Source of the DNA: Amoebophrya sp. A120
Taxonomy: Eukaryota > Protista > Dinoflagellata
Assembly: GCA_905178155.1 (NCBI GenBank)
Contig: CAJINV010000006.1
Location: 440,398-504,397 of the forward strand
DNA length: 64,000 nucleotides
Direction of reading: 5' to 3'
This document shows positions 22,301-31,300 of the stretch, piece by piece; the first letter of the stretch is position 1, and every line of letters begins with the position of its first letter. Under the pieces are notes generated by a model. The model saw only the letters and a program-made list of their open reading frames with translations, ran no database searches and was not told the DNA's origin. A program made the translations under genes and the position numbers.

Positions 22301-25300
22301 TAAGCCGCCAGTAAATTCATCACCAAACTTTGGTAGGGTAACCGCGTATGAATTGCAAAAGCATCGCACTCGTAGTCATTGCAGTCATGCATGTCTTTTT
22401 CTCAAGGCAAATCCGCATTACAAATTCCATTTCTGATGCCAAGGAAATTAAAATTTGTAATGCAATTTATATATACTAGTACGATGCTTTTGCATTTCAT
22501 ATCGCGAGCGAAACAGCAGCACTTGATACTGCTCGTCGGGAATTTGTGCGGCGTTTGCGTTCTTTCTGTCTGGGGGTGCTCGTCGATGTAGTTCCGCATG
22601 CTCTGCGTGTGGTCCACCGCTGACGAATCCCCGTCCTACAAACGAGCTGCTGCTGCTCAAGCTGGATGCTGATCTCAGGTTGTAATCCTTCTCCGGGCTC
22701 AGATTCCGAAAGGATCGACGACGTCCAGGTATTACAGCGTCGCGCGTAGAAGTTCTTGAAACTTCTGTCCTCGCACCACCTTCTTCATCAGAATCTGCTC
22801 CTGCAGCAGCGCTCCACCTACTATCTTGAAGAAAGTTGTGGCTCGCGTGTAGGCTCATATGGCATTCTCAACCGTTACATTCTCAACTGTTACATGAATT
22901 ATTGATGCAAGAATGGCAAAAGTACAATGGGGCAGGTTGCAGCTGTAGCATTACAAATTCCGCACAGATTTACGCGCGGTTTAGCCCTTCGCAAATTTGT
23001 CATGCGGAACAGCTTGATCGTGAGGATGATGATGGCTTTTTTGCATGACAAATTCATGCACTTAACAATTGAGAATGTAACGTTTGAGAACCCCATAGCC
23101 CAGCATGGGAACGTACAGTGGTCTACGGCCATAAACGTGGCGAAACATCTATCCTGAGTAAAAACGTACCCACACCAGAGTTGTAATGCAGATTTGCAAA
23201 GACAGGAAGACTTGTAATCCGCATCCCCATGAGAGCCATTTCCAATCGTGTTTTGGAATTTGTGCTGCTGTGAACAGGATGAGCAGCTGGATTTGTGATG
23301 CGGCTGCACTTGCTAACCTGCACTACACTGCAGAGTGCAACTTGTCATGCGTGACTCACAAAACTCCTAGGTTTGTGTTGCAAAATCCCCATCCTGACTC
23401 TGGTGTGGGTACGTTTTTACTCAGGATAACATCTCTGCGGAAATGCGGGTGGCAGAAGAAAAAAAAACGCCCTCGCTTTGGTTCTCGTCGGCTTCTTTTC
23501 CATCTCTGCCACTCGCTCTCGTTTTTCCGTACAGTGCCTCCAAGATAAGAGCGAAAGCCAGGTCGTACGGCTGCTCCTGATTTACGCTCCCCTTGTCATT
23601 ATTTCCTTCACCGTTTATTGTCGAAGAAGCAGCGCTACTACCTGCGCCCAGATTCTTATCCCACGAAAAAAGTGTTACAGTTACACATTTGTTGTCAATT
23701 CTCTGCATGAGAGAGAAAACTTGTAATTACAAAATATGAACACACTTCTTCCATAATCCCACGTGTGTGTTGTTTCAGTTTGAGTTTTTATTTTTGAGCA
23801 CGAAAAAGCTTTTCCTCGGAGCCTTGAGCGCTAGCCTAAACCACACACGGGAAAACACACGGGAAAACAGGAAGGAAATGAGGATCCAAAGCATTTCCTG
23901 CATGAGAAAGGCTGTCTGTGTTGCCGGTCTTGCAACACAATTTTCTTCCCATAATTTTGCTGTCCGAAGAATTTGCTGAAGGCCAGCATGGGGCACATGT
24001 TCAGCCGCACAATGAATTTCTTCCCGGTCATATCGCAAGAAAAAACTGTTTCACTGTGAACTTGTGATGCACAGAAGGCAACACAGAACTATTTGTCTTG
24101 CTACATCTGCAAGACCTTGACTCTGTAACGGTGTTTTCCCTTTGGAAGCGCGCATGGCAAATTTTCTGTGTCATGTGTAACAAACTTGTGATGCAGAGCC
24201 TGCAAAATCATCACAGTGAAACAGTTTTTTCGTGGGATAGGTCACTGCCGGGGGAAAGGCGTGGATCAACAGGATGCACAGCCAAAAGGGTTCACACCCC
24301 AGCACGACGTTCACGTGCCTGTGAAAGTAGTCGTCATTCGCGAGAAACACCTGCAGCGCAAACACGGCCTGGGTCCAGGTCTCGTAGAAGGTGGAAAAAG
24401 ATGAAGAACCTGAACCTGTCGTTCCACCGCCAGAAGCATCTCCTTCCGCCCTGTTGGTACCTGATCCATGATGTAATTTGGGTAGAATTTGCTATATCTT
24501 GGCGCGAACACAAACTTCTTCCCAAATCCCCAGAACGCTGGCGCCCCTCGACGGCTGCCAGCTTTACTTTGTATGTTCTCGTCAAAAGGCCACACCCTTC
24601 ACTGGTGCTGAACTCCGGCTCTGTGTCAGTAAATGCGTATCTGCGCTGCTTCGCAGCGTCTTGTGTACTACTAGATACAGCAGCGAGGCGCGCAGCAGGG
24701 ACCGCACCGCGACGTCCGCACCACAGAGGTGGCTGCGGGCGTCGCACTTGTCCCCCCACAGACGTGGGTCGAACCGTGCTCCAGCGCTGCGACGAGAGGT
24801 CGCCGCGCCGGGTGCAACAGAGGCTGCAACAAGTCCGAGATCGCGTGGCCCAAACCCCCATCCGAAATCGCCGCCCTGTGGCTCCTCATCCGCCACGCGT
24901 ATCCCGCCGGCTTTGTCGCGTCTACAGGGTGGCCCTCCGGCTGTCCTGTCTCGTCGCATTGCGCCGCACCACCGAGGACATAGATCGGAACCCGCTGTCG
25001 TATGCACCTAGGCCGCGCAGTTCCTAGCTAGTCAACGCGCCACAGAGGTGGCTGCAACTATGCTCGGCTGGTGTGGTGTCAAATTAATCATCCTCATAAA
25101 TGCAAGTGGTTCTTCTAGGTGTGTAATGGACGGAGTTGCTCCTTGGCATAAGCAGATCAAAGCATGCAAAGCGCACCCCGTTCACAGCCTCACATCCTAG
25201 ATCCTTACTAGCCTGCCAGAGTGCGCACAGAGGTGCATCAACCAGCAGGGGTTCCGGCTGAACCAGTGGCACAGACGGTGCTTACCGGTATGGGTCGGCA

Positions 25301-28300: not shown

Positions 28301-31300
28301 AGGGCCCGAGGGTGCTCCAGACAAGCGGGCGCCCGGCCGGGGCCCAAGGTGCCGGCCAGTTGCGCACCCTCCCGCGGAGCAAGCCCCCCGCCACATACCT
28401 ATCATCCCCAAGAAGAACCTGAACCTGTCGTTCCACCGCCAGAAGCATCACCAGCTGCTACCCCATTTGACAGTATTCCAGCGACGTTCTTGTTGTTGAA
28501 AAGCAAGTCCTCGAAGGAATCCGTAGCGAAAAACCGGCTGATATCGTGAGGAAAGATCAGATCCCCCCTCCCCATATCGAGACGGAATTTCTGATGCTGG
28601 ATTTCCGTACACAGGTGCGCGCTGTCTTGCAGTAAGGCATCGCAGCCAGATCCTCACCCTAGATAGGGGCGCTTGGGTCTAGTTGCTTAGCATTGCAAAC
28701 GGCTGTCCCGTTCTAGGCCCAACGGCATGCCAAATCGCTTCCAGAATGCCGCGGAAGCCTCTGCGCTTGTCTTCTTGCAAGACAGACGTGATTTGTGATT
28801 GCAAATCAGCAACCCAAATTTTCGGAAACATACCTTTTCGATATGGGGAAGGGGGATTTTTCCTCTCAGTAGCTGAGCTGTTTCCTCACGTCAAAGTGCA
28901 GCCACCTCTCCGGCTCCAGAAATGTGTTCCGCGTCGCGTGGTTGTCCTGCAGAACTTCAGGGAGTTGATGTGCTGGTGGTTCTACTTCTAGTCCTTGTCC
29001 TGCTTGATGACCTGGTCCTGCAGCAGCAGCAGCGGCCTCCTCGCCTTCAGACGCCAACGGCGCTGTCGCTGCGTAATACTTGTTCACGGTCCCAGCCACC
29101 ACGGTATTTTTCCCTAGGCGTCCTTGTTCCTCGCCACTGGAGGAACCGACGACATGACCGGCATTTTCTATCGCAGCAGCAGCGGCGGTTTCGTTTTTCC
29201 TCACTTCGCTCACTAATTCCCGGTTATGCAGTATCGTAAGAAAAAACGGCTTCACTGTGAAAGGATCTTGCAAGTTTTGCATTACAAGTTCGCTAGTACA
29301 CATTACGAAGAAAACTTGCCATGCGAGGATCCTCAGGGAAAACATCGGTAAAAATCACCTGTCTTGCGTGTGTAGCAAGACAAACACTTCCGTGATGCAT
29401 TTTCTGCATTACAGGTTTACAGTGAAGCATTTTTTTCTTGCGATATGCAGCAGTCTTTGCCGCTCTAGTTTCTCGGATTCGTAAAAGGAGGCTTTCGTTT
29501 TGAAGTTCACAGAGTGCCACGGCGCTCTGCGGCTGTAGAAGGAGGTGGAAGCTGATGTTGTAGTACTGCTAGAAGATGAACCTCGGTCTGTTCTAGCAGT
29601 TCTCTCGTCTTGTTCCGATGTCCTCGTCTCTGTCGCGCCGGTTGTACTCGTACTGGTTGCGTCAAAATCTATATCAAGAAGAAAAATCCCCCCTCCCCAT
29701 ATCACAACGGGAATCTGTGATGCAGATCTGTGGCCACAAATCAGCTCTGTCATGCTAGAAGGCAAAACATGCGGACTGTAGTGCTGGGTGGCGTGAGACC
29801 AAAGCCTTGCATCTTCAACATGACAGGAGGCAGCTGGAATTGCGAAAAAGCATGACAAATTGCCTGCAAACGAGGCCACAACTGGGGCTCTTGGCCTTCT
29901 AGCAGTACAAGTCGATTGGTGTACTCAAATACAGCATCACAAATTTCGTTTTCGATATCGGGAGGGGGGATCTTTCCTTGCAATAATCTACATACTCCGG
30001 GTTCAAGTCCGGCTGTGGCGCGCCAAATATGAAATGCAAATATGTCTGGGTCCTCTGCAAGGTTGCACGTTTGTCATGCTAGTCTGGCAGGACTCGTAAA
30101 TCTGTGATGTATGAGCAGGAAAAGGGTCTCTTGCCTGTCATGCGAAAACGCAGTTTGTCATGCGGAAAACGCAAAAGTAAGCAGCGCAGACCTTTCTCGT
30201 GCAAGGCTGTGCAACATTACAGAACCTTCACTATTCCCAACCAAGCATTACAAGTTTCCAGACTCAGACATATTTGCATTTCATACCAAAAAAGTCCTCC
30301 CAACTCGCAAACACGGGCGACTGGTTACCGACGACGGTATTTTTCAGGTAGATTGTATGCAGTACAAATTTCCCGTACATGTACGAGATGCATCACAAAT
30401 TTCCCCAATTTGGAGTGTGAAACTTGTCATGCCAAACTAGGATCGAATCCAAGTTTTGGCATGCAGAGACCGCATTTGTACGTGTACAGAAAAATTACTG
30501 TGGATAGATTTTGTACGCAAAGTAGTAGCCGACGCGGGGTTTTTGCGTGAGGTTGTCAAATAGATCCTTGGGAGGAGGTTTGGGATCATTTCTACTGCCT
30601 GTACTACTTCCAGTTGAAGAATCTTTATTTTCTGCATGTTTTTCATCCGAAGAAGTCCTGTAGTCGAAGTGGTCAGCGTACGCCATGGCGCCGAGGAGGG
30701 AAGACGCGTACTCGGACGAAGTGGCCAGGTGGCAGTATGCATCGCAAACGCTAACGTATCATAGTCAAGAAATTATTGCCCCCGTCATGCATTACAAATC
30801 TCGTTCTGAAGGTAACTCTGCATTAAGAATTTCATTTTTCATGCCAGGGAATTTGCCGTGCGATTTCTTCTATGAGTAAACGATGCTTCTGCGCAGGATA
30901 GGCAGCCGAAAACAGCGATGTTAACGGCTTGCAACATCCGTGGAGCACCACCACCAACAGCACCACCACCACCATCTGCTTGTTGTTGTTCCGGGGACTG
31001 AAAATAAAAGGCGGAAGAGGACGTTGCTCCGTGTGGTGCTGGTGAAGACCACGAGCTTGTGGAAGCAAGAACGCCCGTGGCGAGGAAATGCAGGTACCGC
31101 AGTTCTAACTTCGTAAATTTCGTGCTGTGGAGTACGAGTGACAAGGATTTTTCACCATCTTCTGACGATGAAGATTCAGACTCCACTCCTCGTTCATCCC
31201 CGTCTTGTTGTTCGAACAGCAACGTTCCGTCCGGCAAGCGCTTTGCGACCCATTTATTTTTTGCCATACCACCGTTTTTTATCTTTGCCTCGACGCGAGT

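Follow-up and report, generated by a model that had tools for sequence, protein, structure and literature searches.

Three unrelated inserts between four copies of one coding segment in a gene of Amoebophrya sp. A120

It is known that introners can take the 5′ splice site from a target duplication (Gozashti et al. 2022, PMC9860276; this and the other papers cited below are used within the limits of their accessible text). The introners of Amoebophrya sp. A120 are described as having 3–5-nt direct repeats and hairpin ends, and as being removed mostly at non-GT-AG sites (Farhat et al. 2021, PMC7789003; Gozashti et al. 2025, PMC12130899). In this study, a stretch of 64,000 nucleotides from this dinoflagellate (contig CAJINV010000006.1, positions 440,398 to 504,397 of the forward strand; hereafter, the window) was analysed. 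The DNA of the window is eukaryotic and densely populated by small elements with hairpin ends, of which a script called 66 candidates. It was found that four copies of one coding segment, of 38, 55, 54–56, and 57 bp, separate three inserts (A, B, and C) in a gene for an 1840-residue protein. The reading favoured here, with modest confidence, is that three unrelated and likely mobile resident elements stand one behind another at a single exon position, that each of them arrived by a separate insertion duplicating 36–56 bp of the target, and that they are removed as GT-AG introns.

Like the introners of Gozashti et al. 2022, the array takes its donor from the duplicated target and its acceptor from the element end, and extra codons are kept in the message. 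In contrast, those introners have duplications of 3–9 bp and add a few codons in the accessible account, while the array has duplications of 36–56 bp and adds 15 or 34 residues; it also differs in stacking three unrelated elements at a single site and in having a cassette exon as an alternative (PMC9860276). The A120 introners share with the inserts the organism and even the gene, and both are non-coding repeated elements in coding sequence that are spliced out. However, the inserts have neither TAT...ATA ends nor the introner box, their duplications are about ten times longer than those given for A120 introners, and their splice sites are canonical (PMC7789003; PMC12130899).

Long duplications have been described in other elements. 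The insertion sequences IS1549 and IS1634 make direct repeats of a variable 8–514 bp by an unexplained route (PMC2266710). They resemble the array as elements with terminal inverted repeats (TIRs) and long duplications of variable length, the mechanism of which is not established. Unlike the array, they are bacterial, autonomous, and of one family per site, and the accessible part of that report describes no repeated use of a site (PMC2266710). The R9 and Dualen long interspersed nuclear elements and the Chlamydomonas Replitrons and Helitrons also have long or variable duplications and one precise end; in Chlamydomonas, unrelated HUH elements have the same odd duplication signature, for which a common cause is suspected (PMC9977147; PMC10288648). 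In contrast to these as described, the inserts have no reverse transcriptase or HUH gene, no tail, and no short direct terminal repeats, and insert B has TIRs (PMC9977147; PMC10288648). Engineered paired nicks about 46 nt apart give tandem duplications of the sequence between them in mouse cells, and re-cutting leads to multiple repeats, since the target is retained (Schimmel et al. 2017, PMC5730883). This outcome is similar to the array, but the capture of whole kilobase elements is not described in the accessible text of that study.

In tandem casposons and in spacer acquisition by CRISPR, elements are separated by common copies of a regenerated target and one junction is fixed, as in the array (PMC4779613; PMC5137440). 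Tandem casposons as described there are related to each other, have Cas1 and PolB, and make constant duplications of 14–35 nt, while the array shows none of these traits. The inserts also differ from CRISPR spacers in being kilobase-size resident repeats rather than fragments of invaders. Three points are new here: one site was used three times with a common edge, the element ends do not include the repeat, and transcripts give evidence of two GT-AG forms that are in frame, one of them with a cassette exon. Among the matches listed, no paper dealt with long duplications or with the stacking of inserts at one site in Amoebophrya, although subscription papers were mostly outside the coverage of the search and the absence is thus unproven.

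Layout of the array and register of the junctions

Coordinates are given on the plus strand of the window; the host gene lies on the minus strand. Target positions are counted from the first base of copy 4 as position 1. In the direction of the gene, the array is composed as follows.

28412 to 28449, minus strand: repeat copy 1, target positions 1–38, truncated; source of the 5′ splice site at 28424
27250 to 28411, no strand assigned: insert A, 1162 bp, non-coding, without TIRs; its last 34 nt are exonised
27195 to 27249, minus strand: repeat copy 2, target positions 3–57; supplies the 5′ splice site at 27226
25601 to 27194, no strand assigned: insert B, 1594 bp, non-coding; 36-bp imperfect TIRs at 25601–25636 and 27159–27194, central inverted repeat at 26322–26462
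25547 to 25602, minus strand: repeat copy 3, target positions 1–3 to 56; one private substitution; fully intronic
24441 to 25546, no strand assigned: insert C, 1106 bp, non-coding repeated element; terminal hairpin at 25522–25543, last 20 nt exonised
24384 to 24440, minus strand: repeat copy 4, target positions 1–57; runs straight into the downstream coding sequence

The first-pass annotation of this DNA had described four copies at these positions, alternating with three spacers in a repeat-spacer-like geometry in which the target is regenerated each time, and this description was borne out. The repeat size of 55 bp given there agrees with copies 2–4 but not with copy 1, which has only 38 bp, or 40 bp if two bases that possibly belong to insert A are included. 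The copies are 98–100% identical in pairwise comparisons over 36–56 bp, and the sole internal substitution among them is the one private to copy 3. A fifth copy was not found elsewhere in the 64-kb window.

The claim that the same site was used three times was also upheld. The downstream-side (right-hand) junctions of all three inserts lie within 2 bp, at target position 1–3, whereas the upstream-side (left) junctions vary, at target positions 38, 57, and 56 for A, B, and C, respectively; this pattern of fixed and variable junctions rests on three events only. The start of copy 3 may be position 1 or 3, since two bases are common to copy 3 and the end of insert B. The lengths of the duplications are about 36, 55, and 54–56 bp for the three inserts. 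To my knowledge, there is no accepted mechanism for target duplications of 36–56 bp around DNA-type elements. The presence of base 57 in copy 2 weakly suggests that B may have been inserted before C.

The reuse of the site exceeds chance by far. With uniform landing over the already intronic block, the probability that two further insertions both start at that position of the repeat, give or take 1 bp, is about 2e-5 by a rough estimate. Thus, some targeting is needed. Could recombination have stacked the inserts instead? Each allele or lineage might have received one hit, or a short tandem repeat might have existed before, and unequal exchange through the 55-bp homology might then have united the inserts. 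Near-perfect homology of 55 bp, as offered by these copies, could support such an exchange. However, three insertions at the same base or exactly at unit borders would still be required, with the same low chance if they were untargeted, and unequal exchange within one allele would repeat one insert, while the three inserts are unrelated. Stacking by recombination is therefore considered improbable.

A 5-bp direct repeat was found in 50 of the 66 introner candidates called in the window, and none of the direct repeats is longer (lengths up to 7 bp were searched). Since the introner duplications in the same window are 5 bp long, the array was evidently made by another process. Among the low-copy direct repeats of the window, no other insert with a long duplication was seen by eye, and flanking repeats longer than 10 bp were present in 0 of 10 other non-introner blocks, the limits of which were picked by eye.

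It had also been pointed out that the repeat holds a palindrome, GGTGGAA-N25-TTCCACC. The palindrome exists in copies 2–4, while its right arm is absent from copy 1 owing to the 38-bp length of that copy. As a recognition signal, it was rejected. A perfect inverted repeat of at least 7 bp occurs in 13 of 156 control windows of 57 nt taken from other exons of the same gene, and in 18 of 1000 mononucleotide shuffles. The folding z-scores of the repeat are −0.67 and −1.09, and 45 and 26 of 200 shuffles, respectively, fold equally well; the palindrome is thus at chance level in the exon controls and the folding shuffles. Bases resembling the introner box at the start of copy 1 are a poor candidate for directing the cut, since they point away from the duplicated span and do not recur ahead of copies 2–4.

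Nature of the inserts

Of eleven listed sequencing runs of one organism, seven were compared with the window. The contigs of one of them, X1 (a run of unrecorded kind), cover 30 of 30 bins of the block, with a summed depth of 290–1035 over insert C, 80–190 over insert B, and 60–105 over insert A; these depths do not represent copy numbers. Insert C has many diverged X1 contigs, and 11 contigs differ from the window at 24475. For insert B, two X1 contigs over 25895–26284 have 4 and 34 substitutions, and two over 26265–26501 have 0 and 30. Inserts B and C are resident elements with diverged relatives in the same organism. Sequence matches to other copies of C end at 25545 (X3) and 25547 (X6), and those to another copy of B end at 25604 (X5 and X6), in each case followed by sequence unlike the repeat. 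Since the other copies of B and C end at the repeat borders and run on into unrelated sequence, the repeat is a target in the host and not an attachment site borne by the elements. The inserts are likely to be mobile, judging from their repetition, their sharp shared ends, and the inverted repeats of B.

The first-pass annotation had called the inserts foreign DNA, which does not agree with the relatives of B and C in the same organism. In metagenome contigs, there were 0 matches to a 24-mer of the repeat and 0 to the terminal 20-mer of B. In viral contigs, the terminal 16-mer of B matched 20 loci, none over more than 19 bp; the terminal repeat of B was the only insert pattern used in these searches. 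On the other hand, the statements that the spacers are mutually unrelated, have no introner motifs, and include one with its own TIRs all proved right. The best cross-match among the inserts has an E value of 0.15, and 0 introner boxes were found in their 3858 nt, while about 23 are expected from the window-wide rate. With 36–56-bp repeats and no TAT...ATA ends in addition, the inserts were rejected as introners of the kind described in A120.

Some structural traits of the inserts may be recorded here. In insert B, the central inverted repeat (26322–26462) has 45-bp arms and lies no more than about 5 bp from the midpoint of the insert, and a short degenerate tandem repeat with a period of about 13 exists at 26995–27064. 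Insert C has relatives with internal deletions of 63–157 bp (X1 joints at 24481–24639), like a family of non-autonomous derivatives. The hairpin of insert C has 9 bp and lies 3 nt from one end (z −3.08; 2 of 200 shuffles are as good). A terminal hairpin and, for Replitrons, short direct terminal repeats would be expected of a Replitron- or Helitron-like HUH element; no direct terminal repeats were seen in the ends of C, and no HUH frame was detected. The last 7 nt of insert A correspond to the far end of the repeat in reverse complement, so that copy 2 becomes a hairpin with a 9-bp stem (z −2.18). A match of 7 was reached at 55 of 3573 control positions (1.5%), or about 9% for six ends, and the inverted 7 nt are only suggestive of templated repair synthesis, of which they may be a trace. 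X1 contigs over insert A differ from the window at 3–6 places and by an 8-bp insertion, which hints weakly at a further copy or allele.

No Pfam family was detected in the inserts (18 open frames in and near the block). Moreover, no Pfam family above its cut-off, be it of a Cas, integrase, transposase, reverse transcriptase, or HUH type, was detected in 78 window frames, i.e. these 18 and 60 frames of at least 150 residues outside the block, although genes split by introners can escape such a search. ARAGORN reported 0 genes. The repeat is read as a coding exon in transcripts and has no Rfam family at threshold; two Rfam matches below the gathering score were judged to be due to chance.

These results bear on the machinery, the process having been likened formally to CRISPR or integron growth. 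A dedicated sequence-specific integrase might insert unrelated linear DNA at a border resembling that of a leader and a repeat, as Cas1 and casposases do, with polar growth of the array. Duplications common to neighbouring elements correspond to the tandem casposon arrangement, in which they are up to 35 nt (PMC4779613; PMC5137440, as far as accessible), and the duplications of B and C have nearly the same borders. However, the duplication length is not constant (36 versus 54–56 bp), the inserts have no common terminal sequence, the palindrome is at chance level, and there is only one such array in 64 kb. The lack of a Cas1, integrase, or polymerase family in the 78 frames is a weak point against such an enzyme, as genes are split by introners. 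A dedicated integrase is thus distinctly improbable, and the proposal of CRISPR- or integron-like machinery was not sustained. It is speculation only that a Fanzor guided by the flank might re-cut the site; the junctions lie at the ends of the repeat and not inside it, and the search for such a gene was confined to the window.

Three described systems were rejected as such. For a casposon, tandem elements with a common target duplication are present, but no cas1 or polB lies between TIRs, the inserts have no Pfam family, and TIRs exist only in B. For a CRISPR array, the repeats are not constant in either length or duplicated span, the spacers of 1106–1594 bp are neither short nor uniform and B and C have their relatives in the same organism, and 0 of the 60 outer frames and 0 of the 18 frames in or near the block match cas genes (split genes can escape). 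An integron cassette array consists of single-gene cassettes with attC hairpins and has an IntI integrase. No coding cassette or integrase family was found in the 78 frames, and the repeat folds no better than shuffles.

Is target-primed retrotransposition in trans a better explanation? A site-preferring non-LTR (long terminal repeat) enzyme would nick the fixed edge and use the RNA of each element as a template, and the long duplication would be set by a second nick of variable position. The array has one fixed and one variable junction, the fixed one being the downstream junction in each of the three inserts; R9 gives 126-bp duplications and Dualen-4b longer ones (PMC9977147, accessible part); and A120 is reported to have non-LTR elements (PMC7789003; PMC12130899, likewise). 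The summed X1 depth over C, which is not copy number, rises toward the fixed-junction end. However, no poly(A) or simple-repeat tail exists at any fixed junction. Insert B is complete between its inverted repeats, which is rare for an RNA copy, and other copies of C have the same variable-side end, so that C is not truncated there. Of the features of non-LTR elements with long duplications, the precise and variable junctions were found, while a reverse transcriptase or endonuclease frame or a 3′ tail was not, and the window frames hold no reverse transcriptase family. Retrotransposition is rather unlikely. Since one edge is fixed and one variable, the cargo is unrelated, and one element is complete with its TIRs, a DNA-level event fits best.

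The host gene and its two splice forms

28425 to 28541, minus strand: upstream exon; ends at a CAG/GT donor inside copy 1; X3, X4, and X5 contigs cover 28423–28541 with 0 differences
27227 to 27283, minus strand: cassette exon, 57 nt, in frame; 34 nt of insert A and 23 nt of copy 2
24240 to 24460, minus strand: downstream exon; starts at an AG/GT acceptor at 24461 inside insert C; an X3 contig covers 24240–24458 with 0 differences
24461 to 28424, minus strand: GT-AG intron of the skip form, 3964 nt; the cassette splits it into 27284–28424 (1141 nt) and 24461–27226 (2766 nt)
19326 to 38359, minus strand: host gene, encoding the 1840-residue protein P0001, which belongs to no known family, and containing many introners (tblastn on the window; spliced contigs)

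Sequence identity between the exon after the array and the corresponding part of P0001, a deposited protein of Amoebophrya sp. A120, is 100%. Neither P0001 nor its homolog P0002 has a Pfam family above the cut-off. Conserved blocks lie on both sides of the site, and the linker between them, which holds it, has about 207 residues in P0001 versus about 43 in P0002.

The transcript-type runs X3–X6 are from one sample; their RNA label is a guess, and joints across introners show splicing. Three of the 15 listed joints come from these runs, and all three are CT..AC on the plus strand, i.e. GT-AG on the gene strand. One 1339-nt contig of X3 joins 28423 to 24458, skipping 3964 nt (119 letters on the shorter side). 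A contig of X4 leads from the upstream exon through 27227–27283 to 24458 (joints 27281/28423 and 24458/27225, the second with 25 letters on the shorter side). In X5, one contig ends in the first 12 letters of the cassette, and a second is unspliced from 24240 to 24557. The host gene is alive and expressed; the spliced in-frame contigs thus dispose of a dead gene, which the first-pass annotation had named as part of a refutation of its reading.

The donor in copies 1 and 2 is CAG/GT. As acceptors, AG/GT sites are used that lie 20 nt (insert C) and 34 nt (insert A) inward from the insert end, while the matching AG in copy 4 is unused. Thus, the X3 and X4 joints place the donor in the target and the acceptor in the element, as expected of intron gain by insertion. 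The alternative proposal of long-repeat-guided removal does not agree with these canonical joints inside the insert ends. It had also been asked whether the message keeps one copy of the repeat or more. The spliced contigs keep two or three partial copies, and no one-copy form exists among the transcript contigs, although contigs drop rare variants and a minor form is possible. The raw-read RNA runs X9 and X10 have no cover over the block or its exons and are uninformative either way.

Both splice forms are in frame and without stops. Compared with a one-copy ancestor, the skip form has gained 45 nt (15 residues) and the cassette form 102 nt (34 residues); the deposited protein P0001 is the cassette form. 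Within 24400–24700, 5 of 28 AG sites give an open frame, and the acceptor in use is the most upstream of these. Before copy 2, 7 of 13 AG sites give an open frame. Before copy 3, 0 of 9 AG sites in 25579–25850 give an open in-frame exon, and this lack of a usable acceptor fits copy 3 remaining intronic.

Two side observations concern these splice sites. Contigs 16 and 17 of X4 overlap by exactly 30 nt (24408–24437) within 24408–24463, and the branch fits none of the four genomic copies; judging from the contig ends only, a second CAG/GT donor 6 nt further on may be joined to an AG/GT acceptor. The splice sites at 24461, 27284, 27226, and 28424 are all AG/GT on both sides, giving 4–5 identical bases at the intron borders, which is the same overlap length as that of the 5-bp repeats of introners.

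The spliced contigs also bear on whether the array is an assembly artefact, in which unrelated repeats were joined via a short common sequence. Each of the three inserts is a repeat or may be one, and no listed contig spans the block. However, the spliced contigs join the upstream exon, the end of A with copy 2, and the end of C with copy 4 in the order of the window with 0 differences. Each copy has its own borders, copy 3 has its own substitution, and X1 covers every bin of the block. Long reads were used to check for chimeras in a published A120 assembly, from which the window may come (PMC7789003, accessible part). An artefact is barely credible.

Origin and meaning of the array

The favoured reading of three separate target-duplicating insertions may be put into steps. 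A preferred nick or one-ended strand transfer would occur at the fixed edge, at target position 1–3, and a second nick would occur 36–56 bp away on the other strand. Host repair would then fill both overhangs around the incoming element, generating the long duplication. Since such fill-in would preserve the target on either side of the element, the site would be open to renewed insertion. The insertions would be tolerated because the donor is in the target, the acceptors are in the element ends, and the linker is poorly conserved, at a cost of 15 or 34 residues. The first insert would make the region intronic, and later insertions anywhere in the block would be tolerated. Yet both later inserts lie at the same repeat position, and thus some targeting would be needed.

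Several points weigh against this reading. No enzyme has been identified, and no target motif can be derived from one locus. Insertion finished by repair leaves, by itself, the choice of the same base by three elements unexplained. The flanks of other element copies are readable only as short loose ends, and the evidence for insert A as a repeated element is weak. Independent contigs span two of the six junctions (A/copy 2 and C/copy 4) among the matches listed (29 of 961). All spliced contigs come from one sample, and the annotation of P0001 may depend on such data. Neither an empty allele nor a close ortholog was found, as homolog searches gave P0001 and P0002 only; the one-copy ancestral site is thus a reconstruction.

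Elsewhere in the window, 8230–9950 and 31980–33900 are two copies of a GC-rich element of about 1.7–1.9 kb with tandem repeats of about 100 bp and 11 bp. Each is nested in an introner-like element and has no long flanking duplication. At 55804–56767, there is a tandem duplication of about 590 bp, which includes exon pieces (78 bp at 99% and 32 bp at 97% identity) and introners.

The array is best filed as insertion with long target duplication and exonisation, and not as a CRISPR-like system. In a broader interpretation, which I consider unlikely, integration in Amoebophrya would follow a sequence-directed pathway open to unrelated DNA elements: the cut would fall on a fixed base and about 55 bp would be duplicated, by which the target would be rebuilt, and the resulting arrays, with the geometry of casposons or CRISPR, would double as sources of introns and cassette exons. 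A dedicated integrase, if one were behind the array, would give eukaryotes their own counterpart of integration with repeat regeneration. With three long-duplication events and a common edge on record at one locus, the array offers a defined target to test. The locus also shows how, through a long duplication, DNA inserted in an exon can yield a canonical intron together with a new alternative exon that is in frame. Such exonisation may be a route to low-complexity expansions in the fast-evolving proteome of Amoebophrya.

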